A DNA stretch of 64,000 bases. It comes from a virus. Taxonomy: Duplodnaviria > Heunggongvirae > Uroviricota > Caudoviricetes. This document shows, piece after piece, positions 20,211-51,406 of this stretch (positions are counted from its first letter, which is position 1; each line of letters starts with the position of its first letter). The stretch is taken from the IMG/VR virus record IMGVR_UViG_3300023371_000005; one strand, 5' to 3'. The notes below the pieces were generated by a model, which was not told the origin of the DNA, did no database searches, and worked only from the letters and a program-made list of their open reading frames with translations. A program made the position numbers and the translations under genes.

Positions 20211-20595
20211 AAGGAGGACGGACGAATTGAAAGCTATTAGACAATTTAGATATTATGGATCTGATTTGATTAATAATGAATTTGCCAAAATAAATAATTA
20301 TCCAAATGATCCTTCTTTCCCAGAAAGATTGATCGGTGGTAATATTTTTAATGAATATAGCGCAATCACAAAGCTTGGTATTCAAGGTCGTCCAGGTACA
20401 ATGTTCTATTTGAATGATAGTAATTACCCAATCGTCATTGGCGAGACAGGTATTTATGAGATTGATTTAGAAGGTTATGGACAGATTTTCCGTATCAAAT
20501 TTGACGGTCCTTCATTGAAGTGGTACGATGAAGATGGCAAAGGCGACCGTCTTCTAATTGACATTGTATTTGAAGGGTCAGGTGGAAGCGCATGA
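20203..20595 (+). CDS. Hypothetical small structural protein. More likely initiates at TTG 20227, 8 nt after AGGAGG. TGA stop overlaps the next start (ATGA).
   Basis: ORF in frame 1. AGGAGG at 20213-20218. Stop TGA 20593-20595. Confidence 0.4.
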   Translation: MFKRRTDELKAIRQFRYYGSDLINNEFAKINNYPNDPSFPERLIGGNIFNEYSAITKLGIQGRPGTMFYLNDSNYPIVIGETGIYEIDLEGYGQIFRIKFDGPSLKWYDEDGKGDRLLIDIVFEGSGGSA

Positions 20596-22748
20596 GTTTT
20601 TATGGTAGCATATATTACCAATTAGTTGATGCTTTCAATCGACTATGGTTTAGTAACTAGGGAAAAGACAGCATTATTTTCCCCGGTGAAGATAAATTAG
20701 TAAATCCAAATCCTGCTGAGGGTGTTCCAGAAGATACTTTTGAATATCATTCTCCTGGACGCCAAGGTGTTATCGACTTAAAGTCTGGTAACAGATGGAT
20801 TGTTTTTACTTAGAATGAAGAAGATAAATCTTTCAAGATTTGGCATAGAGAAGCAGATGCCGAGAGTAATGTTCCTGGTAATGGTTTTTATCATGTTCCA
20901 AATATGTATTTGGTTGTTTAGCAAGATGGAGAAAAAATCGAATAGGTTATTGATAGATGTATTCAAGAAACTTCTGACAGAATTGCAGAAGAGGGCGGAA
21001 CTTTTACTTTAGAAGAGGGCTGTAGAGTAGTTGTTGAAATTCCAAGCAAAGAAGATAATGTTGATCCTTCTCATGCAATCTATAAATATACTATTGATGG
21101 TGAATGGGAAGAGGAATTAGAAGCAACTCAAGGAATGGTAACCATTCTAAATCCCGATGATTTCTTTGTAACTACTGAATCTTATGCTGTAGATGGAGCA
21201 GGACATATGATTCCTGGTACTCGTCATTTATACAAGATGCCAAAGTCTGATGTTCAAGAAGAAATTGATGCTCTAAAGGCTCGTATGACGAAGAATGAAG
21301 AGCACGATGGAGAGCAAGACGACGATATTGATCTATTGGAAGAATATGTCGGTGATTGGAATCTATACAGAGGCGCAACCAATGATAAAGGATTTAATTA
21401 TTGGATGCCGGGTGTCTCTGATGCCATTGGCGATATGTGTGAATTAATCGCAGGTCACCAAAATACTTTTAATGAAGATGGAAGCGTCAAAGATGTTTGG
21501 TCTGACTGGGAAGACCATCGTGATGTTAATATTGCTCGTGTTATCGGTAACTTAACACTATTAAGAGAAAGCTTAAAATCTTTTGATAATGCTCATTTTA
21601 GAGTTGATGATACTAAAATGAGTGATATTAGCTTGATTGATGTTATTTTGTATATTAAAGATAATTTAGTTGCGACAAATACAACAACTCTTACTGGTCA
21701 TAAAGGAAGACTTGATAACTTAACTGACGATATTAATAGATTAACTTCAGATACTTTAGCTTTGACAAAACGTGCAGATGACTTAGAAGCAAAAGATATT
21801 GAAATTGAAGCTGATATTGATGCAATTAACGATCCTGCTACTGGCATTTTGATTACTGCTAAAAATTATACTGATAGTTTAGCCAATGGCGCTGTAAAAG
21901 CAAATACTGATGCCATTGCCGCGATTAATGATCCTACTACAGGTATTTTAGCAAATGCTAAGTCTTATACTGATAATTTAGCAAATGGAGCAGTAAAAGA
22001 TAATACTAATGCTATTACCGCAATTAATGATAGTGAAACTGGTATTTTAGCAAAGGCTAATAAGTATACAGATGAATTAGCCAATGGTGCAGTAACAGAT
22101 AATGCTAATGCTATTATTGCAATTAATGATGGCGAAACTGGTATTTTAAAATCTGCAAATAATTACACTGATGATGAAATTGATAAATTAGATTATACTG
22201 ACAGTGCTGCCGATGGACAATATGTCTATTCTGTAAATGAAACTGATGGTATTATTGCAGTTGAGCATAAAGCTCTTCCTACTTATACTTTAACTTCTGG
22301 TAGTACCAATGGTACAGTCGCTTTCAATGGATCTGATGTAATTGTAAAAGGATTAGGTACTGCTGCTTATTCTAATACAGACGCTTTTGATGCGGCTGGT
22401 GCGGCCGCAACTGCCAAGAACGAGGCAATTGCTGCAGCTAAAACCGAAACTGAAAATCAGATATAGGCATTAACTGAAGGCGCTATTGCAACTGCCAAGA
22501 GTGAAGCAATTGCTGAAGCCAAAACTGAAACTGAAAACCAAGTAAAAGCATTGGCTGAAGGTGCTGTTGCAGACAACAGTGCAGCAATTGAAGATTTAGA
22601 ATTATTGCTTCAAAATTACAATGAACTGGTTGCGAAGGTAGCTGAGCTAGAAGGCAGAATTGCTGCCCTAGAACCCGCACCCGAAGAACCAGATCCAGAA
22701 GAACCAGATCCCACTCCAGGAGATGAAGGTTCTGAACCCACTACATAA
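20592..22748 (+). CDS. Tail fiber protein, about 718 aa, 5 in-frame TAG. Contains four tandem 33-aa repeats and a C-terminal EEPDP repeat.
   Basis: ATG 20592 overlaps the upstream TGA. Track ORFs 21135..22466 and 22551..22748 are in the same frame. TAGs near 20658, 20811, 20919, 20943 and 22464. Ends at TAA 22746-22748. Confidence 0.55.
21822..22217 (+). repeat. Four tandem 99-nt (33-aa) repeats inside the fiber gene. Unit: AINDPATGILITAKNYTDSLANGAVKANTDAIA.
   Basis: Units start at 21822, 21921, 22020 and 22119. Units are roughly 75-80% identical at nucleotide level. The fourth unit diverges after about 18 aa. Confidence 0.7.
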
Positions 22749-22811
22749 TTTCTTTCTATTGAGAAATTAATATATATAAGTAAATAATTTTTAGGAAGGA
22801 GAGAGATTATA

Positions 22812-24299
22812 TTGGCAAGATACGTTAAGTTTATGCGAGGTACTCCTACACAGTACGCCGCTTTGGTTGAAAAAGATATTGATACCCTGTATTTTATTGC
22901 TGAACCTACTGCTAGTGAAGGTTGCTTGTACTTAGGTAATAAGTTAATTGCTGGTAATGGCGAAAGCAATAGCGGAGATCTATCTGAATTACTAAGTTTA
23001 AACGACTTATCTGATGTCATTGTAAATTCCTTAGACTTATCTGATGCTTCCTTTCTAATCTACAATCAATCTCAAGGTGCTTGGGTAAATTGTAGTAAAG
23101 AAGCATTAGTATTTGTTGGCTCTTCTTCTTTGTCCGACGGTAAGGCTGGCCTAGTGCCAGCCCCCGCAAAGGGCGAAGAAAATATGTTCTTGCGTGCGGA
23201 CGGCACTTGGGCCGTTCCTGAAGGCGCAGGAGCTGCTTCTAATGCTGTTGTTTATCAAGTAACCGCAGAAGCAGATGAGAGCAAGGAGGCCGCAATCGTT
23301 CGCATCGTAAATGGTGCTGAATTGCATAAAAATGATGTAGCAATCGTAAGAGTCTTAATTGCTAATGATATGTATGAGCATACTGCTTATGTATATGACG
23401 GTACAAATTGGGCCGCCATGGATGGCAATTATAACGCTGAAAATGTTTACTTCAAAAGCGATTTTGTATTTACTGAAAATGTAGGTACAGTAAAAATTCC
23501 AGAGTCTGGTAATATTGAAGTTCAGGCCGCAGGTTTGAATGTTGCTGAGTTCTTTAATAAGTTGTTCTCTGAGGTAAAAGATCCAACAATTACCGATGTA
23601 GAGTTCACTGTCTCCTGGGATGGAACTAAGACTTCTTATGAAGTTGGCACTTCTGTAATTCCTAAGTATACTTCTACTTTCACTCCTGGTAGTTATGAAT
23701 TTGGCCCTGAAAGTACTGGCGTAACTGTTAGTAGTTATAGTGTTGTTGATACCAATAACAATACTGCTAATACAGCTTCTGGCTCCATGCCAGAAATTAC
23801 CATTACTGATGATACTAAGTATTCTGTAGCAATTACTGCTACTTATACTGATGGTGTTAAAGCCTATAATAACTTACAGCAAGAAAGCGCAGAATATATC
23901 AAGGGTGGTTCCGTAACTAAGGCTACTAGTTCTATTATTGGTTATCGCGCTTCTTTTGTTGGTGTTGATAATGGTACTGGAGCTATTGACTCTGCTGTAA
24001 TTAGAGGTTTAGCTACTTCTTGGAATTATAATGCCGGTAAGGTTATTACTGTTGACGCAGAAACTATTAATAATCCTACTCGTATTATTATTGCTATTCC
24101 TGCTTCTAATACTCGTAATGGTATTAAAGAAATTATTATGCCTGAATCTATGAATTATAATTGCACTGCTGACTATGTACAGCAAGATAATGTTATGGTT
24201 GAAGGTGCTAATGGTGCTACCGCTGCTGAGTATGAAGTTTGGGTTTATGCTCCAAGTAAAATGGGTGTTGATGAAGTCCATAAAATTACTTTGAACTAA
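22812..24299 (+). CDS. Hypothetical structural or fiber protein, 495 aa. TTG start, no TAG.
   Basis: Continuous ORF. RBS AGGAAGGAGAG upstream. TAA stop. Confidence 0.5.
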   Translation: MARYVKFMRGTPTQYAALVEKDIDTLYFIAEPTASEGCLYLGNKLIAGNGESNSGDLSELLSLNDLSDVIVNSLDLSDASFLIYNQSQGAWVNCSKEALVFVGSSSLSDGKAGLVPAPAKGEENMFLRADGTWAVPEGAGAASNAVVYQVTAEADESKEAAIVRIVNGAELHKNDVAIVRVLIANDMYEHTAYVYDGTNWAAMDGNYNAENVYFKSDFVFTENVGTVKIPESGNIEVQAAGLNVAEFFNKLFSEVKDPTITDVEFTVSWDGTKTSYEVGTSVIPKYTSTFTPGSYEFGPESTGVTVSSYSVVDTNNNTANTASGSMPEITITDDTKYSVAITATYTDGVKAYNNLQQESAEYIKGGSVTKATSSIIGYRASFVGVDNGTGAIDSAVIRGLATSWNYNAGKVITVDAETINNPTRIIIAIPASNTRNGIKEIIMPESMNYNCTADYVQQDNVMVEGANGATAAEYEVWVYAPSKMGVDEVHKITLN

Positions 24300-24313
24300 G
24301 GAGGAATTGAAGA

Positions 24314-25735
24314 ATGGCTGTAATTAGACAAGATTTTAATGTCATGTACTTGCCTGCTGCTATTCAGAGAAATAATCCAATTCCTCTGGATAGTACTGCC
24401 TTATGGTATGACTATGATTTGATGGCTGCTTATGCAGCTAGTGATCCTACTGCCTATGTAGGTCAGATTTTAAGCTTGGTTGTTGATGATGTAGCTAATG
24501 CTTATATTATTACTAACTTAGCTGGAGATTTAGAAAAAGTTGGCTCTGCTGTTGTTGCTGATAACAAAACTATTGTTTTGGATAATGGCGCAGTAGCTTT
24601 CAAAGATTTTGGTAAGCGTTATTATAAATATGACGCAGAAACCGAAGAATATACTTTACAGGAAGTTGATGAAAACCATCCTTGGATTGCTGGTCTAGAA
24701 CCAAAAGTAACTAGTGAAGCCGGTCAATTGGTATTAGGTTGGTTTGAGCCAAATTCAACTACATTGGAAGGTGTAAATAGTTCTTTAAGCACTTTACAGA
24801 CTTCTGTAAGTGATTTACAGGGTACTGTTGAGAGCTTGGGTATCCAGGTTTCTTTGAATGAGAAGGCTTTAGAGAATGTTTATACTAAAGAAGAGACCTT
24901 AGCTGAAATTGCTAAGGCTGGACATCTAGTATATAAAAAAGTTGATAGTTTAGATGACATTCAGGCGGATATTGATAATGAAGATGCTAATGTTTCTAAT
25001 ACTATTTACTTAGTTCCTGTTTTAGAAGGCTTAGTAAATGACGTATATGATGAATATATGGTTATTGATGGTGGGATTGAAAGATTAGGTTCTTGGGAAG
25101 TTAATCTTGATAATTATGCCACCAAGGATGATCTTGATGGAAAAGTTGATAAAGTTGATGGCTATGGACTAATGTCTACAGCTCAGACTGCTAAATTAGC
25201 TACCATTGAAGAAGGCGCTCAAAAGAACGTTATCAATGAAGTTAGTGATGAGTTTGAAATTACTGATGGTAAGTTAAAACTTATCAGCTTACCTGATACT
25301 GCTAATATTGCAAATCATACAACTATTTTATCTTTACAGTCTGGTATTGACTCTAAAGTCACTATTGTCCCAGGCAAGAGCTTAGTTGATGATACTCTAA
25401 TTGCAAAGTTAGAGGCAATGAATGCAGAGGGCGAGAAAAATGTTATCAATGCGGTTGATGAAAATGAATTAGCAATTGATGAAAACCGCACTTTATCTAT
25501 TGTTTCCGTAAGTGGTTCTAAGATTGCTGAATTGGATTTAAATGAAGATTTTAAGAATTTGTCTAATAATGTAGATAGTTTATCTACTGACTTAGCTGCT
25601 TTAAATGCTTCTTTACAATCTTTGGATACAACTTTAACTGCTTATAAGATTGAAGTTTCTCAAACTTATTTAACTAAGTCTGAGTTTGAGGATCGTTTTG
25701 CTTGGCATGAGTTATCTGACTTTGTCACTACTTAA
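24314..25735 (+). CDS. Fiber-like structural protein, 473 aa, no TAG
   Basis: AAGGAGG RBS 7 nt upstream. Continuous ORF. TAA stop. Confidence 0.55.
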   Translation: MAVIRQDFNVMYLPAAIQRNNPIPLDSTALWYDYDLMAAYAASDPTAYVGQILSLVVDDVANAYIITNLAGDLEKVGSAVVADNKTIVLDNGAVAFKDFGKRYYKYDAETEEYTLQEVDENHPWIAGLEPKVTSEAGQLVLGWFEPNSTTLEGVNSSLSTLQTSVSDLQGTVESLGIQVSLNEKALENVYTKEETLAEIAKAGHLVYKKVDSLDDIQADIDNEDANVSNTIYLVPVLEGLVNDVYDEYMVIDGGIERLGSWEVNLDNYATKDDLDGKVDKVDGYGLMSTAQTAKLATIEEGAQKNVINEVSDEFEITDGKLKLISLPDTANIANHTTILSLQSGIDSKVTIVPGKSLVDDTLIAKLEAMNAEGEKNVINAVDENELAIDENRTLSIVSVSGSKIAELDLNEDFKNLSNNVDSLSTDLAALNASLQSLDTTLTAYKIEVSQTYLTKSEFEDRFAWHELSDFVTT

Positions 25736-25755
25736 TATAAGGAGGATTACTAATA

Positions 25756-27885
25756 ATGGCTGATGAAAAATTAAGTTTATTATTTAGAAGAGGTACAATC
25801 GACCAGATTTTAGCTGGCGATAATATTGTTCCTGGTGCCGTTTCTTTCTGTACTGATGAGCCTGGTATTTATCTAGATTTAACTACTGATGAAGGCGGCG
25901 GTGTTGCTAAGAGAGTCCGTGTCGGTGATTTCATCTCTGTTGCTAGCTTTGACGATATCAAGGCTGCTGCCGCAGCTGCTACAGATCCTGACAAAGCTTT
26001 CTCTGAGCATTGCTTATACTACTCTATCCAAGAGAATGCTTTGATGAAGTACAAGAAGAGCGAAAAGACTTTTGTACTTATCAATGATTTAAGTGATGTA
26101 AATGCTGATATTGCGGCCCTTGATGTTAGAATTACTACTAATGAGGGCTATATTAAGACCTTGCAAACTAATTTAGCTACTGAGACTACTCGTGCTACTA
26201 ACGCTGAAGCCGCCCTAAGAAATCGTATTGATGCTTTAACTGGCGGTGGAGATGGCTCTACTGATTCTTTAACCCAATTAAGAGCAGATTTAAATGCTGA
26301 AATTGAGGCTAGAGAAGATGGCGATGAGGCTTTACAAGGCAGTATTACCACTCTAAGTGGACGTGTTAGTACCAATGAGGGTGATATCTCTAACTTAAAG
26401 ACTTTGTTTGGTCAATTACCAGATGGAGTTGCTACTAACATTGTTGATTATGTAAATGCTAAGGTTCTTGCAGAGCAGGAACGTGCAACTGGTATTGAAA
26501 ATGGCTTACGTACCGATGTAGATAAGAATACTGGTAATATCAGTACCTTAACAACTGGTTTGACTGATGAAGCTGCTCGTGCTAAGGCTGCTGAGCAAGC
26601 TAATGCGACTGCTGCTGCTAATGCTCAGTCTAAGGCTGATGAAGCTGCCACAGCTGCCGCCAATGAAGCTTCTCGTGCTATTGGAGTTGAAGGCAAGTTA
26701 AGAACACTTATTACTAACCTAACTAATACTCACACTACTGATAAGAATGCTTTAGAGCAGTCTATTACTGGTTTAACTAGTAGCTTAGCTGCCACTACTG
26801 GTATTGCTAACGATGCTAAGACTCAGTCTGACACTAATAAAGCTGGTTTAGCTCAAGAATTGGTAGACCGTGCCACTGGCGATCAAGCTAATGCTGATGC
26901 TATTGAAGCCTTGGATGGCGAATTGGCCGAAGAAGTCGAAAGACTGGAAGGTTTGATTGGTGAGGCTGGCTCTAGTGCTGATGCTGTTCGGTTGAATTTG
27001 AATAAAGAAATTGCAGACCGTCAAGCAGCTGATCAGGCTAATGCTCAAGCTATCGCTAATGTCGATACTGCTTTAGAACAGGAAAAGACAGCTCGTACTA
27101 ATGCCGATACTGAGTTAGACGGAAAGATTACTACTGTTTCTAATGGTTTGGCTGCAACTGATGGTAAAGTTTCTACTTTAGAAAATTGGAAGACAACTGC
27201 TTCAAAACAAATTAAAGATTTAGAGGATTGGGCAACTGATACTGATGACACAATTCAGCAGGAAGCTCAAGCCCGTCAGACTGCTATCAATAATTTAAAC
27301 AATGCTTTGACTTCTGAAACTGAGGCTCGTGAGAAGAGAGACGAAGAGTTAACTAATTTAATTAGTGCTGAAACCAAGGATCGTGAAGATGCTATTGCCG
27401 ATGCTTTAACTCAGGCTGCTAATACTGCTGACGAAAAAGACCAGGCTTTGCTAGATCTGATTAATGAGAATATGGCTGCCGCAAACTCCATGTCCTTCAA
27501 GGGTAGCGTAACCGGTTATGACAGCTTACCTGCTTCTGGAATCCAGGCTGGTGACACTTACGTTGTAACTACTGCTTTTAGTAACGCTGAAACTGAGCCT
27601 CAGATTGGTGACTTATTGGTTGCTAGAGATGATCAGGCAGACGGTGCTACTTTAGCTGATGCTAATGCTAAGAAGGATTTCTTCATCTGGGTTAAGACTG
27701 GTTATTCTACTTTCAATGATCCTGAATTGGTTGTTGAAGATGCCAAGATCAAGATGAAGAGCCATTTAGGTGAAGTTTTAGGAACTGTTTCTGTTATTTC
27801 TGCTAGCGAGAATATTGTAACTAATATTTCTGGCGAAGGAAAAGACTGCACCGTAAATGTTAGCTTCGTATGGGGAACATTCTAA
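25756..27885 (+). CDS. Coiled-coil fiber protein, 709 aa, no TAG
   Basis: AAGGAGG RBS. Long heptad-like repeats (ATNAEAALRNRIDAL etc). TAA stop. Confidence 0.55.
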   Translation: MADEKLSLLFRRGTIDQILAGDNIVPGAVSFCTDEPGIYLDLTTDEGGGVAKRVRVGDFISVASFDDIKAAAAAATDPDKAFSEHCLYYSIQENALMKYKKSEKTFVLINDLSDVNADIAALDVRITTNEGYIKTLQTNLATETTRATNAEAALRNRIDALTGGGDGSTDSLTQLRADLNAEIEAREDGDEALQGSITTLSGRVSTNEGDISNLKTLFGQLPDGVATNIVDYVNAKVLAEQERATGIENGLRTDVDKNTGNISTLTTGLTDEAARAKAAEQANATAAANAQSKADEAATAAANEASRAIGVEGKLRTLITNLTNTHTTDKNALEQSITGLTSSLAATTGIANDAKTQSDTNKAGLAQELVDRATGDQANADAIEALDGELAEEVERLEGLIGEAGSSADAVRLNLNKEIADRQAADQANAQAIANVDTALEQEKTARTNADTELDGKITTVSNGLAATDGKVSTLENWKTTASKQIKDLEDWATDTDDTIQQEAQARQTAINNLNNALTSETEAREKRDEELTNLISAETKDREDAIADALTQAANTADEKDQALLDLINENMAAANSMSFKGSVTGYDSLPASGIQAGDTYVVTTAFSNAETEPQIGDLLVARDDQADGATLADANAKKDFFIWVKTGYSTFNDPELVVEDAKIKMKSHLGEVLGTVSVISASENIVTNISGEGKDCTVNVSFVWGTF

Positions 27886-27948
27886 TTCGGACAGAAAAGG
27901 ACAATAAATAAGTTGTTATTTTCAAATCCTTATGAAGGATGATTATAT

Positions 27949-27985
27949 GGAGAGGATAATATAATTATCCTCTCCATTTTTTTTA
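27949..27985 (+). terminator. Rho-independent terminator
   Basis: GGAGAGGATAAT-ata-ATTATCCTCTCC 12-bp perfect stem followed by a T-run. Confidence 0.6.
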
Positions 27986-28010
27986 TATTTGGATAGAAAG
28001 GAGAGCAACA

Positions 28011-31000
28011 ATGGTAGATCAAAAAAATGTTTTACAATCTATTGGCGCCCGTGAGACCGGCAATGTTTTTAGACCTGTAAATTGTACTGAGCAAGACATG
28101 AAGAGAAAACGTGCTATTCCAGGCTACTTATACTTCACACAAGATTCTCATAAGATTTATCAAGGCTTAGGCTCTGGTGAATACCAGATGGTCGGCGGCA
28201 GTTCTAGTATTTTCTACGGCAAATATCCTATGACCGATGATGAAAAATACGGAACTAATGTTTTCTTTACTTTCTCTATGACTGAACATATTGAAGGAGA
28301 AAATGTTCCTGCCTTAGATTCTTTGATTTTGAATATACCTGATGGCGGTTTTTACAGAGTATTAAATGTTGATGGTGACGCCATTGCTGTAGAAAGACTG
28401 GCTATGTCTGGCGGCGGTGGAGATAACACTGGTCCTGGCTCTAATCAAAAAGGTAATATTACTATTGAATATTACAATGGCGCTGACGTTGATACTAATA
28501 TCACTATCTTAAATGGTGTTGAGCATTGGATTGAGTTTACTATTACTGCAACTGATGAAGTTGGAGATATCTTAACTGAAACTGGTACCGCAAGTTGGGC
28601 TATTAATGGTAAGACTTATACTCAATCTGTAACTACTGGCTATAATAAATTCAGAGTTGATGAACTTTTACCCATGGCAAAAGATGGTAACTATACTCGT
28701 ATTAACTTGATGGTCTATATGAATACTGGCGGTATCACTGATAACTATGCTAGTAAGCAATGGAATATCCAAAAAGTTGATTTGCGTTTAGAGTGGCCTT
28801 TCACTTATTCTGAAGATGAATATCGTAAAGATTCAACCTTTACTTTAGTATTCAAACCTTTTGGTGGTATTAATTGTACCGCTCATATTACTTTTGACAA
28901 TGGTTCTACTCTAGGACAAGATTACTTCGAGGAAGATATTCCTGCTAATCGCGCAAACGGTAATGAATTTACTACTCAAGCAATGAAGAGTCTGTCTTAT
29001 GGTGAGCATACTTGTTCTATTTATTTGGATGCCACTATCAATGAAGATACTGGAAAGCCAATTACTGTTAGAACACAAGAAATTGTTCATAGAATCACTT
29101 TCACCGAAGGTGGTACTTCTACAATTTTAACCGTCCCATTTGATCAAAAGACTGCTACTCAATATGACACTATTGAGATTCCATTCTTAGTTTATGACCC
29201 AGATACAACTGAATGTAGTGTTACTTTCTCTGTTAATGATAACGTAATTTCTACTCGTAGCTACAACAGAGATAAGCAATCTATTCCTTACACAATTACC
29301 ACTCATGGTACTATTAAGTTAGCTTTAGAGTCTACTAATGGTGATACTAAGAGAGAATTCAATATCACTGTTGAACCTTTGGATTTGAACAGAGAAGAAG
29401 TTAGTGGTGCAGCTTTTAGCTTAAAAGCAATTAATTTCTCTGGTAATGATGAAGTTATTAACTGGGTTGGCGGTAGTGAAACTAAGCCTGTAAGATTGAA
29501 CTTCTCTGATAATTTTGACTGGCGTAATGGCGGTCTAAAATATGAAGTTCTTGCAGATGGAAGCATTGAAAAGTTTATCTGTGTGCGCCAGGGTACTTGG
29601 ATGGAAATTGACTATAAGTTATTTGAAAATTTCAAAACTGGTACTACCGGTGGTAAGAACTTTAAGTTCTGCTTCAAGGCAGCCAACTGTTATGATTATG
29701 AAGCTCCAGTTTTAAGCTGTATCCATTATAATTATAACGAAATTGAATTGACTGAAGATACTTATAGAACTAATAAGTATTATATCCTTTCTGGCTCTGA
29801 TTATATTATTTCTAGAAATCCATTTGATGAAACTGCTACTTATTTTGAGAAAGTAAGAGTCGCTGAAATTGGTCTAGAATTTGATGCTCAGAAAGCAACT
29901 TTCTCTTCTGCTACTTATCCTAATTTCGCAACTCAGTATTGTGAAAACTCTTATATTGAAGTTGAAACTGAAATTTGGCCCAATGTAGGAGATAGACAGC
30001 AAGGTAGTAAAACCGTTTATGGTGATCGCTACTTAATGATTTGGGTTGATGGTGTTCCTGCAGGTGCTAAGCCTTACAGCCAAAACATGGCTTTACAGCA
30101 AAATGATGCTCAAACCATTCGCATTGGTTCTGATTCTTGTGACGTCTATGTATATACCGCAAAAGCATATGAACGTAGATTAACAAATGATGAACATTTA
30201 AATAACTTCGTTATGGATGCTCCTAGCGTTAATAAGATGCTAGAGCGCCATCGCCGCAATGATATTATTGACTCCAGTACCGGCGAAATTTCTTATGAGC
30301 TTTTGGTGCAGAAAAATCCTGGATGCCATGCTTATTTGTATGATATTCCAGAATTAACTACTAATAAAGAAGATAAGATTGATGGCTGTACTTATTATGA
30401 GTTGATTAATGAATATGATAATTTAGGTAAGCCATTTATGAGAGCAGATAAAGTTAGAACTTATGTTCAGGGCACTTCTTCTGCCGCTTATGGTGTTGCC
30501 GCATTTAACTTACGTTCTGATTTTACTAAAAAAGGTAAAATTTATGATAAGAATGGTAATGAAATCCCTGGATGGAGACCTTCTGATGAAGATGAATATA
30601 TTGACATTGCTTGTACTAAAGTTAATGTTGCTTCTTGTGAAAATGCCAATAACGTTGTAAACGCAGAATGGTATAACAGATTCCAGCCTTACTGGGATGC
30701 TCACAGAAGAAAAGGTACTCGTTATGACAGTGATGGTAATTTATTATACAATCCTATGCGTGACTGTATGAAATTCCACTCTGGCGTTGTCTTCTTGAGA
30801 GACCACAATACACAATTCAAATATTTAGATGACAATGGAGATCCTAAGAGTGAAATCTATTTGGAGTCCAATGCATTTATCAACCCAACTAACCCTGATT
30901 GGGAAGCAAAATATGCCGCAGAACCTTATTTTAAGATGTATTCTATCGGCAATATGGGTAATGATAAGAAGAATTTGAATGTTTTCCATGATACTACCAA

Positions 31001-34000
31001 TCCACGTGCGGCCTGTGTCGAAGTTCTAGATAACCAGAACGCAGAACACTGGATGACTATTTTCAATGAAAAAGCTTTTGAAAAAGAAGTTGTAGGTCAG
31101 GACGAAGAAGGTAAAGATATTACCAAGGGTCCATACTATGAGTTCCGTTATGGTCTTGTAGAAAATGAAGACTTGTTAGAAAATGAGCAGGGCATTACCG
31201 TAGAACAACAAGAACAAGATTTCTTGAGACTGGCTGAATGGTTCGCAATGAATGATCCAAGTCCATATGATGAGTTGTCTCACCCCAATGGATATACTGG
31301 TGAAGAATTGCCTGAACCTGTAACCTTTACTGATGATTTTGTGTTTGAAGGCTTCGATCCTCCTGGATACGAAGGCCAGCCAAATCCAACTGAAATTAGT
31401 CTAAAGGGTCAGAAAATTAGTCGTTACAAAGGTACTTATACCCACGACACTAAAGATTATCGTATCGCTAAAATGTTGTATGAATGTGAAGATTACTTGG
31501 TTATGGATTCTGTTGTATTCCATTATTTGTATATCTCTCGTCACACCATGGTTGATAACGTTGCTAAGAACACTTTCTGGAGCACCGAAGATGGATTCCA
31601 CTGGGATCTAACTAAAAACTACGATAATGATACTTCTGATGGTAATGATAATACTGGTAACTTGACTTATACATATGGTCTAGAAGTCGGTGATATTAAC
31701 CCCAATGGTAAAGATGTTTTCAATGCTTCTCCTTCCGTATGGTTGAATTTCATTCATGAATTAAGAGAGGCTCAGCAATATCTATTCCAGGAGTTGAGTA
31801 AGAAGGGTGCTTGGGATGCTGATGATTATCTAGCTGAATTTAAGGCTCACCAAGATATTATTCCCGAAATTTGCTGGATTCAGGACTATGAAAGAAAATA
31901 TATTCGTCCTAGACGCTTAGGTCTTGATGAAACTACTTTCTTAAGTCGTCTAGAGGGTGGTCGTAAGACTCACCAGAGAAAGCAATATGAAACTTATCAA
32001 GAGTTCTATCTGAACTCTAAATATGTTGCAAGTACTGCTTTCACAGACAGTGCTGGTATCGAATTCCGTTTCAATAAAGACGGTGATTTCGCATTGCAAC
32101 CAACTGACGTTCTTCCCATGACTTTCTATATTGATTGTTATGGCACTATCCACTTAGGTGGTCAGAAGAGAACTTCTACTCGTATTAAGAGAGGTAATTA
32201 TTATAATGCCCCTGTCGGTGAATTGATTTCTGCCGCAAGCGATGCTACTTGCTATATTTATGGTGCAAGTATGATTCAAACAATTAAAGACTTGTATAAG
32301 TTGTATCCTGGTTATGCCAAGATGACTAATGCAAGTAAATTGCGTGAATTTGAAATCGGTTCTGATATAGAAGGTTATTATAACCCTCGTTTGAGCGAAG
32401 TTAGCGTTGGTACTAACGCAATGTTACAAAAATTCCAGGCTAGAAATGTCGGTAACCCCGAGAATATTTCTATCCTAAGCTTAACTAACGCAACTCAGCT
32501 AGAAACTGTTCTAATGAGTGGTAGTGCTTTCAAAGAATTGTCTTTGGCTCCTAACGCAACTACCAAAGAACTTGAATTAAACCCATTAGCAATCTTCTCT
32601 GCAACAAATCTTCTTGATTTGGAAACTGTTAGATTGGATGATGGAATTTATGATTCAATTCAGCAGGCTTACATTAATAACTGCCCTGGCTTAGATGTTT
32701 ACACTTATCGCTTCGCAAAAGCTCCTTCTTTAACTAACTATCAATTTACCGATGTAAATTGGGTTATTAATGATGAGACTGAAGATGATTTCGTCTTAGA
32801 TGCCGATAATAATGTTGTAGCCTTTGCCGCTCTTGAAAACTTAACTGATAATAATACTGGTCCTAGACTTGGTACTACTACTGTTACTGCTTTAAGCGGT
32901 ACATTAACAGTTGATAAGGCTTGCGCTATTGATGAATATAAGATTTACAAAACTTATGCAAAAACTTATCCAAACTTGATTTTCAAGTACACTGATAAAG
33001 TTGGTGCTAATTTCAACCCCGCAGTTGAATTAATTTTCTTAACCAATGAAAATTCTGAGGAACAATATTACAGAGTATTGGGTAGCGGTGATACCTCTGG
33101 AGAAAATGCTCACAGTATTGCTTATCTAACTTCCGCACAAGGTCCTTTAGGTTTTGCTATTGGTACTCCTCACAAGGAATCTACTTCTTCTCATGATTTT
33201 GCATTTACTGGCTATTGGATTCATAAAAAGGATAATGTAATTACTAAGTATTACAATACAAAAGATTTGCCAGATGGAGCAGTTCCAGAAGCATCTGCAA
33301 TCTCCTTTGAAGATATTACTCCAACTGAAAGTATGACATTCTATCCAGAGTATATTACTACTGATAGAGAGTACAAAGTTCGCTTCTGCGACTGGGCTGG
33401 TAATATTATCTTACAGAATGGTGAAGAGTATTGGCCTGTTCCTTATGGTAAGACTTACGTCGAGGCCGCAGGTCCAATGACTAATTTCCACTATCGTGAT
33501 AATACAGGTCTACAAGATCATATGAGATGGGCATTCCAAGGTTGGTCTAAGAACCAATACAAGGATAAGGAAATTAAGAATCCTGTTTATGAAGATTTGG
33601 CAACAATGGTAGTTACTAATGATGTGACTTTACATGGTCACTATTTAACTGAAGACTGCCGTGATGTCGCTTCTAAATTGGAATATTTCAATTTCAGCGA
33701 GCGTGGTAAGATCTCAATCGCTGAGGAATATCGTGAAACTTTACAAGGTAAAATTACTTTACCTAGTGAATATGATGGTATCCCTCTAACTCAGGTAAAA
33801 GACTTTAAGAATATGGCTCGTGTTACTCACGTATTCTTCTTGAGAACCAATACTTCTTATACAAGTATTTTCCAACAAGCCTTCGAAGGAGCTTTAGCTT
33901 TGCAATATGTTGATTTGCCTATTGGAATTACTCATATCGGAACATATGCTTTCAAGAGTATCAAGAGTTTAACTACTGTTGATATGAAATCTAATGTTGA

Positions 34001-34481
34001 AGAAATTGGTAGCCAGGCATTCTATGAAACCAACATTAACTTAACTTCTTTACCTGCTAAACTAAAACTTCTAAAGTCTGGTGCATTCATGGATTGTCGT
34101 GAATTGACTTTGTCTGCTTTACCAGCTTCTTTAGAGACTATCGAAAGCCACGTATTTTTCTTATGTCCTAAGATTAGTATTAATCAATTGGGTGGCGGTG
34201 ACGCTAAATTGAGTTATATCGGTATGCAAGCTTTTGGCGGCGGTTCTGGCGCTAATGGCACTGTTACTGATATTTACTTCGGCTCAACGGTTAACTTCAT
34301 TGGTGAAAACGCCTTCAAGGGATATGGTAAAAATGGTCGTGTAAGTACTATTAGCTTTGCTAAACAAAGTGTTGAAGATTATCTAATGACTGATACAGCC
34401 TACCATACTAGTATTTCTACTATGGGATTTGATAATCCTCCTTACACTGAAGTTTGGGATTGGAAAGGAGAAGGTTCTTAA
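28011..34481 (+). CDS. Giant virion-associated protein, 2156 aa, with C-terminal BspA-type leucine-rich repeats. No TAG.
   Basis: RBS AAAGGAGAG. Continuous ORF ending at TAA. The last roughly 250 aa carry repeated motifs typical of BspA/TpLRR: xIGxxAFxxCxxLTSLxLPxxLxxIxxxAF. Confidence 0.6.
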   Translation: MVDQKNVLQSIGARETGNVFRPVNCTEQDMKRKRAIPGYLYFTQDSHKIYQGLGSGEYQMVGGSSSIFYGKYPMTDDEKYGTNVFFTFSMTEHIEGENVPALDSLILNIPDGGFYRVLNVDGDAIAVERLAMSGGGGDNTGPGSNQKGNITIEYYNGADVDTNITILNGVEHWIEFTITATDEVGDILTETGTASWAINGKTYTQSVTTGYNKFRVDELLPMAKDGNYTRINLMVYMNTGGITDNYASKQWNIQKVDLRLEWPFTYSEDEYRKDSTFTLVFKPFGGINCTAHITFDNGSTLGQDYFEEDIPANRANGNEFTTQAMKSLSYGEHTCSIYLDATINEDTGKPITVRTQEIVHRITFTEGGTSTILTVPFDQKTATQYDTIEIPFLVYDPDTTECSVTFSVNDNVISTRSYNRDKQSIPYTITTHGTIKLALESTNGDTKREFNITVEPLDLNREEVSGAAFSLKAINFSGNDEVINWVGGSETKPVRLNFSDNFDWRNGGLKYEVLADGSIEKFICVRQGTWMEIDYKLFENFKTGTTGGKNFKFCFKAANCYDYEAPVLSCIHYNYNEIELTEDTYRTNKYYILSGSDYIISRNPFDETATYFEKVRVAEIGLEFDAQKATFSSATYPNFATQYCENSYIEVETEIWPNVGDRQQGSKTVYGDRYLMIWVDGVPAGAKPYSQNMALQQNDAQTIRIGSDSCDVYVYTAKAYERRLTNDEHLNNFVMDAPSVNKMLERHRRNDIIDSSTGEISYELLVQKNPGCHAYLYDIPELTTNKEDKIDGCTYYELINEYDNLGKPFMRADKVRTYVQGTSSAAYGVAAFNLRSDFTKKGKIYDKNGNEIPGWRPSDEDEYIDIACTKVNVASCENANNVVNAEWYNRFQPYWDAHRRKGTRYDSDGNLLYNPMRDCMKFHSGVVFLRDHNTQFKYLDDNGDPKSEIYLESNAFINPTNPDWEAKYAAEPYFKMYSIGNMGNDKKNLNVFHDTTNPRAACVEVLDNQNAEHWMTIFNEKAFEKEVVGQDEEGKDITKGPYYEFRYGLVENEDLLENEQGITVEQQEQDFLRLAEWFAMNDPSPYDELSHPNGYTGEELPEPVTFTDDFVFEGFDPPGYEGQPNPTEISLKGQKISRYKGTYTHDTKDYRIAKMLYECEDYLVMDSVVFHYLYISRHTMVDNVAKNTFWSTEDGFHWDLTKNYDNDTSDGNDNTGNLTYTYGLEVGDINPNGKDVFNASPSVWLNFIHELREAQQYLFQELSKKGAWDADDYLAEFKAHQDIIPEICWIQDYERKYIRPRRLGLDETTFLSRLEGGRKTHQRKQYETYQEFYLNSKYVASTAFTDSAGIEFRFNKDGDFALQPTDVLPMTFYIDCYGTIHLGGQKRTSTRIKRGNYYNAPVGELISAASDATCYIYGASMIQTIKDLYKLYPGYAKMTNASKLREFEIGSDIEGYYNPRLSEVSVGTNAMLQKFQARNVGNPENISILSLTNATQLETVLMSGSAFKELSLAPNATTKELELNPLAIFSATNLLDLETVRLDDGIYDSIQQAYINNCPGLDVYTYRFAKAPSLTNYQFTDVNWVINDETEDDFVLDADNNVVAFAALENLTDNNTGPRLGTTTVTALSGTLTVDKACAIDEYKIYKTYAKTYPNLIFKYTDKVGANFNPAVELIFLTNENSEEQYYRVLGSGDTSGENAHSIAYLTSAQGPLGFAIGTPHKESTSSHDFAFTGYWIHKKDNVITKYYNTKDLPDGAVPEASAISFEDITPTESMTFYPEYITTDREYKVRFCDWAGNIILQNGEEYWPVPYGKTYVEAAGPMTNFHYRDNTGLQDHMRWAFQGWSKNQYKDKEIKNPVYEDLATMVVTNDVTLHGHYLTEDCRDVASKLEYFNFSERGKISIAEEYRETLQGKITLPSEYDGIPLTQVKDFKNMARVTHVFFLRTNTSYTSIFQQAFEGALALQYVDLPIGITHIGTYAFKSIKSLTTVDMKSNVEEIGSQAFYETNINLTSLPAKLKLLKSGAFMDCRELTLSALPASLETIESHVFFLCPKISINQLGGGDAKLSYIGMQAFGGGSGANGTVTDIYFGSTVNFIGENAFKGYGKNGRVSTISFAKQSVEDYLMTDTAYHTSISTMGFDNPPYTEVWDWKGEGS

Positions 34482-34693
34482 TGACTAAAGATAGAAAATA
34501 CAGATACCTTGGCCGCAATGGTATTTTAGATACTAAGGTCCTTCTAGATGGTATCAATCATATCAATATCGTAACTATCAATGCTGATCCCGGCAAGATT
34601 TTAACTAATGGTGAGCGTACTCAGTACAGCGTCACTGTTGAAGAGGCCGAGGAACATAAGTGGAGAGAAATTACGGACAATACCAAAAAATAA
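34481..34693 (+). CDS. Small hypothetical protein, about 70 aa. ATG overlaps the upstream TAA.
   Basis: ATG 34481 is in frame with track ORF 34454..34693. AAGGAGAAGG precedes it. Confidence 0.4.
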   Translation: MTKDRKYRYLGRNGILDTKVLLDGINHINIVTINADPGKILTNGERTQYSVTVEEAEEHKWREITDNTKK

Positions 34694-34711
34694 GGTTATT
34701 TGATTTTTCAG

Positions 34712-34743
34712 TTCTAGGGAAGGGAAATTCCTTCCCTAGAACA
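34712..34743 (+). other. Perfect 13-bp hairpin GTTCTAGGGAAGG / CCTTCCCTAGAAC without a T-run
   Basis: Inverted repeat seen directly. No U-tract on either strand, so not an intrinsic terminator. Possible RNA stability or processing element. Confidence 0.4.
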
Positions 34744-34769
34744 ATATTATAAAGAAAGGAAGATATAAC

Positions 34770-36782
34770 GTGATTACAGTCTATAATAAAGATTATAAAG
34801 ACCAATATACCGTTCTATTCCAAGACGCATATAACGTTTTATTGGATATGCAGGCTAAAGATCCTCTTGGTGTAAAGATTAATCAGTCTGTTTTGGATAA
34901 AGGCAAAATCAGTTCTCTTGAAGAGTATTTTGCTCATATTGGTTATTTAGCAGATTATCACACTGAAAATATTAGAAATAATCCACCTTCTAATGTTGCA
35001 TATCAAAACTCTGCTAAGTTCTTGATGCTTCCTATGGATGAAAAATACGATGTCAAGTCTGGCTGTTTTTACATTGACCTAAATACTAGAAATATTCAGG
35101 TTCCTGATATTTATAGTAAATATGGTGTTAGTGTTACTGGTGATCAGTTAGCCGAGACTTTGATGTTTAAGGTTCCTCGCTATTTCGATTATACTGACTT
35201 GGCTTCTACTGAAATTTATGTTCAGTGGACTAACCCAGCAGGAGACGAAGGTGCTTCTCGTATTGTCTTAGTTGACTTTGAAGCAGAAGAAGGTTATCTA
35301 TTATTTGGTTGGCCTTTGACCAGTAAGGTTACTGTTGAAGGTAAAAATCCTTTGAAGTTCTCTGTTCGTTTCTTCGTAAGAAATGAAGAGAAAGAAATTC
35401 AGTACAGCTTAAATACTTTGGCTAGTTCTGTTATGATTAAGCAAGCTCTATATACTCATTTCAATGCTGACCTAGACATTGATGATCCATCTTTGTTGTT
35501 TGCGGCCGCAGTTGAAAATGGCGTTGACTCCAACATGACTCTACCTCAGATTCCTGTCTTCTTCTATGATTGGAAATTGGGTAATGACGAAGGAAAAGCT
35601 TTCTTAAAGAATGATGCAATTAAGCTATATGCTAGCGGTGCCACTGCTGATGCAGGTCAGTTGTGCTACAAGTGGTATTATACTCCTCGATTCATCGAAA
35701 ATAATGTCGCTGTAACTAAAGATACTGAAGAAGTTTTCAAGGCTTACGCTGATGTAGATACTATCTTCAAGCCCACAAATGATACTGAAAAAGAAGCTGG
35801 CAAGACTTATTATGTTGAAGAAATCGAAGCTGAAACTGGCAATCAGATTTATACTGTTTTCCTAGGCGATGCTTTTGAAGAGCCAGAAGAGGGAGAAGCT
35901 GCTCCTGTTTATTATGAGCAGGTAAGTGTTTATACCATTTTGGCTGTTGATGATGATGCTGAGGATTTGGGTGCTTCTACTGCGCTAGCACCTAATAAGA
36001 GATATTGGCCTCACGTCACCGGTGAATACAAGCTAACTTTGAACAATCAAGTTGGTAGTAGCAAATCTGCAGAGAGCGTTGATTCTTTGAAGTGCGTAAT
36101 TCCTTGTGTTGAAAAAGTTGAGTTCACCGCAGATTTACCTAAGAACAAAGTTCTATCTACTATTGGCGAAGGCGAAGAGACTGTTAGCCAGGCTATTTTA
36201 ACTGTTACTGTTGATGCAAATGACGGTGCTGAAAAGAGCTATGTATGGTATGAAGCTGCTTCTTCTGACGCTGAATATGTTGAAGTTCCCAATGCTTCTA
36301 ATGCTAGTATGACTGCTACTCAGCCAGGCTGGTATAAAGTTAAGGCTATCGGTACTTTGAACAGAGAGAGTATGTGGAAAGAAAGTTCTGAATGTAAGGT
36401 TACTTATCCTGCTGAAGCTCCTGAAATCGTCAAGTATCTAGTTGATGGTATCGAGTATCCTATTACAGATGATGACCCAACTTTAGAGAATGTTCCTGGC
36501 TTGAATACTCCTATTACCTTCAAGATTGAAATTGAAGAAATGAATGAGTTCCAGACTGACGGTGTCACTTACAAGTGGTTCCGCAATACTCCTAACCAGA
36601 ATGGTACTCCTATTAAGGATTCTGATCTAGATATTATTAGTGTAAATGGCAGTGAAATTACTGTTAAGCTATTAGCTAATAATGACTTGCCTGTTAATAT
36701 TGCCTTCTATTACTGTGAAATCACTAATACTCTAGCAGGAGAAGAAAAGAAAACTACTTCTAAGGTATTCCAGATTTCTTAA
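34770..36782 (+). CDS. Hypothetical structural protein, 670 aa. GTG start, no TAG.
   Basis: RBS AAAGGAAG. Continuous ORF. TAA stop. Confidence 0.5.
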   Translation: MITVYNKDYKDQYTVLFQDAYNVLLDMQAKDPLGVKINQSVLDKGKISSLEEYFAHIGYLADYHTENIRNNPPSNVAYQNSAKFLMLPMDEKYDVKSGCFYIDLNTRNIQVPDIYSKYGVSVTGDQLAETLMFKVPRYFDYTDLASTEIYVQWTNPAGDEGASRIVLVDFEAEEGYLLFGWPLTSKVTVEGKNPLKFSVRFFVRNEEKEIQYSLNTLASSVMIKQALYTHFNADLDIDDPSLLFAAAVENGVDSNMTLPQIPVFFYDWKLGNDEGKAFLKNDAIKLYASGATADAGQLCYKWYYTPRFIENNVAVTKDTEEVFKAYADVDTIFKPTNDTEKEAGKTYYVEEIEAETGNQIYTVFLGDAFEEPEEGEAAPVYYEQVSVYTILAVDDDAEDLGASTALAPNKRYWPHVTGEYKLTLNNQVGSSKSAESVDSLKCVIPCVEKVEFTADLPKNKVLSTIGEGEETVSQAILTVTVDANDGAEKSYVWYEAASSDAEYVEVPNASNASMTATQPGWYKVKAIGTLNRESMWKESSECKVTYPAEAPEIVKYLVDGIEYPITDDDPTLENVPGLNTPITFKIEIEEMNEFQTDGVTYKWFRNTPNQNGTPIKDSDLDIISVNGSEITVKLLANNDLPVNIAFYYCEITNTLAGEEKKTTSKVFQIS

Positions 36783-36800
36783 TAAAGGAGGTCAATAATT

Positions 36801-37448
36801 ATGTCACAGTTAAGTCAAACTGCTATTGACAAATTATATGAAATCCAAAGAAGTAATCCTCCAAAGATGGCTTCCATTCCATATGCGGAGGATTACATTG
36901 AAGTTGATTGGCGTACTCGCTCAATTGGAGAACGTGATATCCTAAGCACTGCTCGTGACCATAAATCCGAAAATTTATACTTTATCATGGATAGATATTG
37001 GGATTATATGGACTTGTCTACCACCACCTGTGTTATTTCTTATAAGACTTATCCCGCAGACCCCCAGAAGCAAGGTGTGACTGGTTTATATGCCGTTCCA
37101 TATTACGACATTTATACTCATAAAGCTACTCCTGGCACTTTGGAAAAGGATAAGATGGTTATTCCATGGTGTATTGATGGACGAGTAACTCAAGACGAAG
37201 CAGAAGTAGAATATGCCATTCGTTTTTATCGTGTTGATGCTGATGGAAAGAAAATCCTCTATAATATCAGCACCATGCCAAATGTTGGCAAAGTCCTATA
37301 TGGACTAAACGTTCAGCCAAACGGCCTTGAAGACGCCGGAGATCTAGCTGGTGATTATGATATTGCTAGTAGTATGTATGAACATTTTACTGACGAAATC
37401 AGAAAATTAAATCAGCAAGATATTTTTTGGATTGAATTTGTTTCATAA
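36801..37448 (+). CDS. Hypothetical protein, 215 aa, no TAG
   Basis: AAAGGAGG RBS. TAA stop. Confidence 0.5.
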   Translation: MSQLSQTAIDKLYEIQRSNPPKMASIPYAEDYIEVDWRTRSIGERDILSTARDHKSENLYFIMDRYWDYMDLSTTTCVISYKTYPADPQKQGVTGLYAVPYYDIYTHKATPGTLEKDKMVIPWCIDGRVTQDEAEVEYAIRFYRVDADGKKILYNISTMPNVGKVLYGLNVQPNGLEDAGDLAGDYDIASSMYEHFTDEIRKLNQQDIFWIEFVS

Positions 37449-37455
37449 CTTTTAT

Positions 37456-37490
37456 GGGTGGAAGTAATTTTTACTTCCACCCATTTTTTT
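37456..37490 (+). terminator. Rho-independent terminator closing the TAG-free block
   Basis: GGGTGGAAGTAA / TTACTTCCACCC 12-bp stem followed by a T8 run. Confidence 0.6.
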
Positions 37491-37599
37491 TGTTATTGGC
37501 CGAATAAAAATAATATACTAATCTCTTTTTTTATTTATATTAGAAAATAAAAAGAGATACTCTTTTTTTATAAAAATTTTTAGAAAAGGAGGAACATAT

Positions 37600-39705: not shown

Positions 39706-39737
39706 TAAAATCTAGGTGAGAAAGGAGAAAATATACA

Positions 39738-42341: not shown

Positions 42342-42351
42342 TTGCGGAGAT

Positions 42352-42394
42352 ACCCGAAAAATACCTAAAAAGTATTTTTCGGGTATTTTTTTTT
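42352..42394 (+). terminator. Strong rho-independent terminator ending the structural operon
   Basis: ACCCGAAAAATAC-ctaaaaa-GTATTTTTCGGGT 13-bp perfect stem followed by a T9 run. Confidence 0.7.
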
Positions 42395-42436
42395 GTCATT
42401 CGCAGGACCTCAAAAAGTTATGTCCCGGTATTCTTA

Positions 42437-42541
42437 CGGTCCATTTTTGGTTATTTTTCATTCCAGTCGCGGTCCATTTTCGGTTAGGGTTCGGTCCTCG
42501 TTTGGACAAATTAGGGTAATTTTTCGGTCCTAATTTTCATA
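42437..42541 (+). repeat. Array of 4 direct repeats sharing the core CGGTCC. Core starts at 42437, 42470, 42492 and 42525, i.e. spacings of 33, 22 and 33 nt.
   Basis: Units: CGGTCCATTTTTGGTTA, CGGTCCATTTTCGGTTA, CGGTCCTCGTTTGGACA, CGGTCCTAATTTTCATA. Located in a 250-nt non-coding region between a terminator and the next gene. Confidence 0.6.
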
Positions 42542-42595
42542 AAGCTATGAGGGGATTGGATAAAATATTTTTTGTATGGAGAGGAGACCTTACAT

Positions 42596-45881: not shown

Positions 45882-45889
45882 TTAAAGTA

Positions 45890-45940
45890 TCCCCCTTTCT
45901 AACTTCTCTGACATTTATAAGAAGTTGGATAGGGGGATTT
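45890..45940 (-). promoter_or_regulatory. Long imperfect hairpin (19 bp, 2 mismatches, C5/G5 clamps) overlapping the RBS of gene 45423..45881
   Basis: ATCCCCCTATCCAACTTCT...AGAAGTTAGAAAGGGGGAT on the - strand. No U-tract. Confidence 0.35.
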
Positions 45941-45945
45941 ATTAG

Positions 45946-46967: not shown

Positions 46968-46972
46968 GATGA

Positions 46973-47980: not shown

Positions 47981-48009
47981 ATCAAGACCTCCTTTTACTC
48001 TTTATACTA

Positions 48010-48038
48010 AATTATATCAATTTTTTTTATGTAAGTCA
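48010..48038 (-). promoter_or_regulatory. Sigma70-like promoter on the - strand: TTGACT, 17-nt spacer, TATAAT. Copy 1 of a duplicated 39-nt element.
   Basis: On the - strand: TTGACT (48038-48033), spacer TACATAAAAAAAATTGA, TATAAT (48015-48010). The 39 nt at 48001-48039 match 55591-55629 almost exactly. Confidence 0.6.
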
Positions 48039-51405: not shown

Positions 51406-51406
51406 T

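Follow-up and report, generated by a model that had tools for sequence, protein, structure and literature searches.

How does a gut phage that reads TAG as a sense codon come to carry, in the middle of its late operon, a long run of genes with no TAG at all? The question is raised by a locus in a virus of the class Caudoviricetes (IMG/VR record IMGVR_UViG_3300023371_000005), of which one stretch of 64 kb, referred to here as the window (W), was analyzed. The block of interest consists of seven plus-strand genes at positions 22812-37448, and its flanks are the neighboring late genes. The original prediction left two readings, a recent import from a standard-code phage or a module kept TAG-free. 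Our results demonstrate that TAG in the block is not a neutral synonym of CAG, unlike in the neighboring tail genes. On balance, the block is probably a resident, vertically inherited host-recognition module from which TAG is kept out by purifying selection, and not a recent import.

When TAG is read through, the plus strand from 30 to 45376 becomes one unbroken series of long late genes, and open reading frames (ORFs) of at least 150 codons total 66.4 kb, versus 50.5 kb with the standard code (both strands, overlaps counted). There are 27 in-frame TAGs in the gene of the tape-measure-like protein of 2,760 amino acids (aa) and 5 in the 1,834-aa gene. In alignments with relatives, the TAG columns are mostly occupied by CAG or CAA in the other genomes, and TAG therefore encodes Gln. 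The early-type genes on the minus strand (45423-63580) have 0 TAG in 5,430 codons. No tRNA genes were found within the 64-kb window. The window DNA recurs identically on a contig of 202,962 bp and in other samples; since the loci L001 to L003 are 100% identical to W, they are uninformative on microdiversity. This is a phage recoded from TAG to Gln (code 15), with a genome of approximately 203 kb.

Counted from the first ATG of each gene, the block has 0 TAG in 4,755 codons, as had been noted. In its stop-to-stop frames the only TAG is at 34737, in an intergenic hairpin 5' of a gene start. The remaining late genes together have 66 TAGs in 9,897 codons, with 52 in 7,435 codons upstream (1 in 143) and 14 in 2,462 codons downstream (1 in 176), which agrees with the earlier estimate of about one TAG per 100 to 200 codons. 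None of the block's 147 Gln codons is TAG, compared with 66 of 385 in the late flanks. The claim that such an absence is not due to chance also held, both by the Poisson probability of zero (1.7e-14) and by random placement of the 66 TAGs among the 532 late Gln codons (P = 1e-10). Out of frame, the trinucleotide TAG occurs in the block at the same frequency as in other parts, which indicates that the avoidance is specific to the reading frame and is not avoidance of a DNA motif.

The TAG-free state persists in other genomes. A search with the giant protein of the block identified three loci (L099, L096, and L097) that cover the whole block and both flanks, with 98%, 97%, and 81% identity to W in this protein, respectively. 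Together with W, these are the only four genomes with whole-block coverage, and they are related to each other. L097 is the most distant of the three; its 644-aa block protein is 58% identical to that of W, and for the 965-aa protein of the flank the value is 75%. The same seven genes, with identical block boundaries, contain 0 TAG in L099, 1 in L096, and 1 in L097, while the flanking genes contain 11 to 13 TAGs per genome. Summed over the four genomes, there are 2 TAGs in 19,022 codons of the block versus 62 in 12,544 codons of the flanks. Because the genomes that share the TAG-free state differ at 9 to 40% of fourfold-degenerate sites, this state is far too old to be explained with neutral CAGs.

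The neutrality of TAG was examined by comparing, for each genome pair, the CAG/TAG differences with the synonymous C/T rate, counting one-way changes. A stricter test of CAG-to-TAG changes with three outgroups left only 8 to 18 sites, which is too few, and the pairwise test was used instead. Between genome pairs, 0.31 to 0.64 of fourfold sites with an ancestral C are now T, and the synonymous C/T values at the first position of Leu codons are similar (0.20 to 0.74). In the flanks, 4 to 6 CAG/TAG mismatches were observed per pair and 5 to 7 were expected, indicating neutral turnover. In the block, 0 to 1 were observed per pair versus 16 to 22 expected (P = 1e-8 to 1e-11). This turnover test over four genomes backs the second of the two original readings, that the module is kept TAG-free.

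The block appears to have been inherited along with its surroundings. Gene 1, the first gene of the block, has 993 homologs at an E value of 1e-5 or below, with 37 to 92% identity and nearly all of full length among the 120 matches listed. The gene order is the same on both sides in relatives with 89, 88, 80, 66, 57, 47, 43, and 40% identity, and the block was orthologous and syntenic in every relative in which this was checked (L004, L007, L008, L010 to L013, L015, L096, L097, and L099). With respect to phylogenetic incongruence, the topology (W,L013),L015 was obtained for both flank and block genes, but W and L096 differ less in the block than in the flank, and patchily. Divergence between W and L013 at fourfold sites is similar in block and flank. 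Between W and L097, the values are 0.30 to 0.40 in the block and 0.38 to 0.51 in the flanks, a similarity which implies that the module and its neighbors have long diverged together. All seven block genes end in TAA, as do 21 of the 23 late genes (30-45376); among 22 early genes (minus strand, 45423-63945), 10 end in TGA and 11 in TAA.

Depletion of the reassigned codon extends across the lineage in a graded manner. In all 13 TAG-recoded genomes compared, the TAG-per-Gln ratio of block to flank is below 1 (0 to 0.51), and in the nine genomes outside the TAG-free group the depletion is partial. The numbers of TAG in gene 1, gene 2, gene 3, and the giant gene are 0, 1, 3, and 6 in L013, 0, 2, 4, and 7 in L015, 2, 0, 2, and 10 in L004, and 2, 1, 3, and 12 in L008, respectively; the available sequence of L013 and L015 extends through most, but not all, of the giant gene. 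The presence of block TAGs in L013, L015, and more distant relatives means that the constraint depends on the lineage and is not absolute. The block TAGs of L013 and L015 are nearly all private, whereas flank TAGs are often common to three to five genomes. Such private block TAGs are a signature of purifying selection against TAG that is relaxed unequally among lineages. A corresponding pattern was observed in TGA-recoded relatives. The fraction TGA/(TGA+TGG) is 0.10 in the block and 0.46 in the flank of L051 (p = 4e-5), 0.26 and 0.55 in L054 (p = 0.006), and 0.38 and 0.58 in L012 (not significant). As TGA is depleted relative to TGG in these relatives, significantly in two of the three, the effect concerns the reassigned codon, whichever it is.

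Codon usage of the block is also distinct, as predicted from its apparent richness in GCT and GCC. The GC content at third codon positions (GC3) is 0.275 in the block versus 0.19 upstream, the share of GCT is 0.61 versus 0.47, and the proportions of CAA, CAG, and TAG among Gln codons are 0.50, 0.50, and 0 versus 0.71, 0.11, and 0.18. The recommended comparison of codon usage between block and late flank gave a chi-square of 488 with 41 degrees of freedom, and in a principal-component analysis the block genes cluster apart from both late flanks and from the early genes. The block strongly avoids A-ending fourfold codons and ATA (among the codons avoided besides TAG are ATA, TCA, CGA, ACA, GGA, AAA, and CAA), and TTC, AAG, and CAG are raised. 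This contrast is not restricted to W. Relative to the flanks, A-ending fourfold codons and ATA are reduced and TTC is increased in 13 of the 13 TAG-recoded genomes, and AAG is increased in 12 (unchanged in one). TAG depletion is correlated with the shift in GC3 (Spearman rho of -0.83; 13 genomes, not independent). With the same contrast present in all of these genomes, atypical codon usage is not diagnostic of import; it is an old property of the module.

The genes concerned are of the tail fiber/adhesin type. Gene 1 (22812-24299) encodes 495 aa from a TTG with the Shine-Dalgarno sequence GGAAGGAGAG; a start at the ATG of position 22833 would give 488 aa. Its product is a conserved tail protein that matches phrog_35541 and is modeled by AlphaFold2 as tandem beta-sandwich domains (predicted local distance difference test score of 81); the model gave no significant match in the PDB. 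Gene 2 (24314-25735) encodes a coiled-coil, fiber-like protein of 473 aa, and its orthologs have 0 to 2 TAGs in relatives and 5 TGAs in L012. Gene 3 (25756-27885) encodes an Ala/Thr-rich coiled-coil fiber of 709 aa. The giant gene (28011-34481) encodes 2,156 aa with 43 CAA and 26 CAG codons. The earlier description of a leucine-rich repeat (LRR) protein was borne out by a BspA-type LRR_5 domain at the C-terminal residues 1951-2075, and the protein is, judging from its sequence, a putative adhesin or receptor-binding protein. The start of a 70-aa ORF (34481-34693), which is 96 to 99% conserved in L096, L097, and L099, overlaps the stop codon of the giant gene. It is followed by a 670-aa protein without a family match (34770-36782 with a GTG start; the ATG at 34848 would give 644 aa), and by the final gene, which encodes 215 aa (36801-37448) and whose ortholog in L096 holds the single CAG-to-TAG change of that block. 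Each of the seven genes individually has 0 TAG. Gene 3 and the 644/670-aa protein are among the most variable block proteins, with 55 to 82% aa identity across the four TAG-free genomes. For five of the seven block proteins, sequence searches of PHROGs, Pfam, and PDB gave no function. A sub-lineage with approximately 42% identity in gene 1, represented by L011 (14813-21460) and L048 (14866-21453), has a giant gene that looks non-orthologous (22 to 24% identity). These giant genes contain 1 and 0 TAG, respectively, in approximately 2,200 codons, are CAG-rich, and have raised GC3, and their flanks contain TAG.

Conserved noncoding elements lie at both edges of the block and within it. At the upstream edge (22747-22790, plus strand) is an AT-rich inverted repeat, AATTTCT-TTCTATTG-AGAAATT, followed by AATATATATAAGTAAATAAT, a -10-like AT stretch, and the element overlaps a sigma-70-like sequence (TTGAGA-18-AATAAT). 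It is unique in the window and, in an alignment of 13 genomes, nearly unchanged down to relatives with approximately 40% aa identity. On these sequence features it is a candidate promoter or operator. The TGA-recoded L012 has a longer, GC-containing hairpin and a T run at this position. The two terminators that had been placed inside and after the block are both present as hairpins, at 27947-27977 and 37454-37484. The former (27947-27985 with its T8 tract, plus strand) lies in the gap between gene 3 and the giant gene and consists of a 14-bp stem and T8 preceded by a conserved 60-nt leader; it is retained in 12 genomes, and its stem shows compensatory changes in L010, L011, and L012. Within 27886-28010, a small hairpin (ATCCTT-ATGA-AGGAT) and what may be an extended -10 lie in the 60-nt leader, which directly precedes the terminator-like hairpin. 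A promoter-like site followed by a terminator-like hairpin right before the giant gene suggests control by attenuation or antitermination. The strong terminator-like hairpin at the downstream edge (37454-37492, plus strand) also has a 14-bp stem and T8, and it is kept in L096, L097, and L099. With the 22747 element and both hairpins conserved, the block coincides with conserved regulatory punctuation. Comparable hairpins punctuate the whole late region (at 8319, 14410, 42346, and 45377), and a scan of this region found no terminator hairpin at the upstream edge of the block.

In the explanation that we favor, the block would encode fibers, the giant adhesin with its LRR domain, and proteins that act together with them, and any new change from CAG to TAG in it is eliminated by purifying selection at the level of translation. 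It would have to be possible to translate the module when the suppressor tRNA is missing or in short supply, and perhaps also when other phage tRNAs are. This could apply when late expression begins and the TAG-rich genes for the tape measure and baseplate, as well as those downstream, have yet to be translated; TAG density would then stage translation among the late genes. We infer this timing and independence of the suppressor from sequence comparison.

Several observations weigh against this explanation. The four TAG-free genomes are not independent samples. L013 and L015, the closest genomes sampled outside the TAG-free group, have 10 and 13 TAGs, respectively, in the part of the block that is covered, and in more distant relatives the TAG density of the block is about half that of the flank. 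At fourfold sites, W and L096 differ less in the block (0.13) than in the flanks (0.24), and patchily so, from which it follows that block segments have to some extent recombined among close relatives. Genes 1 to 3 share a terminator-bounded unit with TAG-containing genes, unless the 22747 element is a promoter. The tape-measure gene tolerates its 27 TAGs, which indicates that suppression is efficient once it is on and weakens an argument based purely on the cost of TAG.

Some of these observations raise the possibility that block alleles live mostly in unsampled relatives with a standard or mixed code, in which TAG would be purged, and are repeatedly swapped into recoded genomes. The lineage with the syntenic tail module does mix TAG-recoded members, TGA-recoded members (L012 at 1-21497, L051, and L054), and members that apparently use the standard code; the remaining loci listed for it are L016, L017, L021 to L026, L029, L033, and L035. 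Some of the relatives in IMG/VR are 160 to 208 kb long. Among the phages of Borges et al. (10.1101/2021.08.26.457843) are genomes with more than 90% average nucleotide identity and different codes. The block TAGs of the relatives are mostly young and private, the divergence along the block is patchy in the comparison of W and L096, and there is the separate lineage of L011 and L048 with a TAG-poor, CAG-rich giant gene, all of which would be in line with such a reservoir. However, TAG recoding is seen in the flanks of L096, L097, and L099 and of each of the eight sampled genomes whose gene 1 is at least 46% identical. Block and flank have diverged together across the deep split between W and L097, the four TAG-free genomes agree exactly in where the block begins and ends, and its stop codons are those of late genes. 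We consider repeated supply from such a reservoir unlikely.

General selection for translational efficiency is another candidate. Here, the module would be more highly expressed or more sensitive to errors than its neighbors and would avoid all poorly decoded codons, with no role for timing or the suppressor. Phage structural genes show host-adapted codon bias due to translational selection, and the module resembles them in that its synonymous bias is stronger than, and distinct from, that of its neighbors. The scaling of TAG depletion with the shift in codon bias, the simultaneous avoidance of ATA, TCA, CGA, ACA, and GGA, and the graded depletion in relatives all agree with this explanation. 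In contrast to ordinary host-adapted bias, a reassigned stop codon is wholly excluded, and the tail genes within one operon are split. The tape-measure gene and the baseplate-like genes, the latter with ancient shared TAGs, suggest that decoding of TAG is not very costly late in infection. An adhesin of 2,156 aa is also unlikely to be the most abundant protein of the virion. Finally, 2 TAGs in about 19,000 codons of four genomes exceeds ordinary bias, in which disfavored codons remain at 1 to 15%. Efficiency selection of this general kind is thus quite unlikely to account for the pattern.

Recent import, the first of the two original readings, assumes that the module was acquired by recombination from a standard-code phage and is too young to have gained TAG codons. 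Tail fiber modules are classic units of recombination; tailed phages exchange their fiber and receptor-binding modules mosaically, and transferred DNA ameliorates. In position and function, in its variable coiled-coil fibers, and in its patchy divergence, which points to some recombination, the block is like such modules. Its composition and codon usage, which are unlike those of the flanks, and the lower, patchy divergence from L096 are what could be cited in favor of an import. It is unlike exchanged modules in that a foreign origin is not supported and no donor was found and in that its compositional contrast is ancient and lineage-wide rather than decaying, being present in all 13 TAG-recoded genomes, even those with block TAGs. 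Standard-code homologs were sought by protein searches and scans of IMG/VR and GTDB, and the gene 1 hits that apparently use the standard code were at most approximately 42% identical. In the GTDB scan the homologs were all distant, none above 44% identity, and most lay on long contigs of phage-like character that had been binned into metagenome-assembled genomes of many taxa. A megablast search of 20 kb against GenBank phages and an IMG/VR scan with the upstream 718-aa protein alone gave no match. A search for repeats found no att-like direct repeats at the block borders, and in Pfam and PHROGs none of the block proteins matched an integrase or transposase. Parsimony polarization of third-position changes with L015 as the outgroup was uninformative, as it gave more weak-to-strong than strong-to-weak changes in every lineage, which is probably an outgroup artifact. 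Synteny and orthology, the shared tree, similar divergence of block and flank (W-L013 and W-L097), the lack of border repeats, the TAA stops, and the absence of a close donor leave a recent standard-code acquisition unsupported, and together with the age of the TAG-free state they make it very improbable. Chance, or DNA-level avoidance of a TAG-containing motif for restriction or methylation, has nothing in its favor beyond the small size of some genes and is of negligible probability, given P values of 1e-10 to 1e-14, a pattern repeated in three further genomes, and the normal frequency of off-frame TAG, on which motif avoidance was rejected.

Exclusion of TAG from a resident module by purifying selection thus remains the reading to be placed among known systems. 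In code 15 gut phages, the early genes keep the standard code and the late genes are recoded (Borges et al., 10.1101/2021.08.26.457843; Peters et al. 2022, PMC9523058). The phage described here is like them in that TAG aligns with Gln, early genes are TAG-free, structural genes are recoded, codes 11, 15, and 4 are mixed among relatives, and the genome is about 200 kb long. It is unlike them in that a 14.6-kb stretch inside the late tail operon resembles the early genes with respect to TAG. In the text of Borges et al. (10.1101/2021.08.26.457843), as searched by keyword, structural and lysis modules are the alternatively coded units, avoidance of recoded stops is described only for early genes, for the integrases of Garnet and Topaz prophages, and for the code-change module of Jade phages, and there is no mention of a tail fiber island kept in the standard code. 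As in the Garnet, Topaz, and Jade cases, particular genes here are compatible with the standard code, which that text reads as selection for translation before or without the code switch. Those cases concern regulatory, lysogeny, and code-change genes with an obvious need, whereas here virion genes for host recognition are affected, and the strength of the constraint varies by degrees within the lineage. Avoidance of recoded stops in particular genes is thus known; here it is seen in genes of the virion. A module translated while the suppressor is scarce would extend the idea of Borges et al. that lysis genes are delayed by recoding, from which integrases and code-change genes are exempt.

A further, tentative possibility is that the genetic code acts as a second-level timer within the late genes, with a universal-code host-recognition module that has its own upstream element and terminators. 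A-ending codons are those that phage tRNA sets commonly supply. As the block avoids both TAG and A-ending codons, it could be translatable by the unmodified host apparatus, while the genes rich in TAG (tape measure and baseplate) and those downstream that contain TAG would await the suppressor.

The surrounding late genes served as context and control. Their order on the plus strand is the 2,760-aa tape-measure-like gene, the 1,834-aa gene, the 948-aa and 965-aa genes, the 718-aa gene, the block, the 701-aa and 724-aa genes, the holin gene, and several small genes. The upstream tail genes (948, 965, 64, and 718 aa; 14467-22748, plus strand) contain 19 in-frame TAGs. The 948-aa and 965-aa proteins are of the baseplate/tail type (phrog_1887, "tail"), and the 718-aa protein directly upstream of the block is a coiled-coil fiber. 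Its gene contains tandem in-frame repeats (three of 99 nt at 21816-22112 and two of 81 nt at 22407-22568), in which a TAG in one copy is AAA in another. The downstream 701-aa and 724-aa genes (37600-41912, plus strand) contain 8 in-frame TAGs, and the 724-aa protein has Flg_new repeats. The holin gene follows at 41934 (plus strand). Past its terminator is a gap of 254 nt (42342-42595) with four copies of CGGTCC(A/T) followed by a T-rich tract (at 42438, 42471, 42493, and 42526), which may be regulator-binding sites before the last late unit. At 8319-8403, a sigma-70 promoter sequence close to the consensus, including an extended -10 (TTGACT-17-TG-TATAAT), comes after the tape-measure terminator, and this match predicts a host-type promoter within the late region. 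On the minus strand, 46072-46431 is the sole early-strand ORF with a terminal TAG, and when this TAG is read as Gln the ORF extends by 42 codons to 45946; it may yield one product before the code switch and another after it, or else be no real gene.

A Firmicutes-like host is suggested by strong ribosome-binding sites (GGAGG), by the holin, and by the domains BspA-LRR and Flg_new. The distant GTDB homologs, spread over genomes of many taxa, did not narrow the host further.

Stop codon recoding in phages is currently viewed as a coarse switch between early and late genes. If the explanation favored here is true, recoding would be tuned gene by gene, even among the genes of the virion. Turnover between CAG and TAG that is neutral next door and forbidden in the module provides a natural test of the cost of in-frame TAG and of the timing of the suppressor. 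Gene callers that assume one code per genome or per block would handle such a region inconsistently. Host-range modules of this kind could be moved among phages with different codes, and if the code is indeed a second-level timer, sister phages with codes 11, 15, and 4 would still be able to exchange the module.

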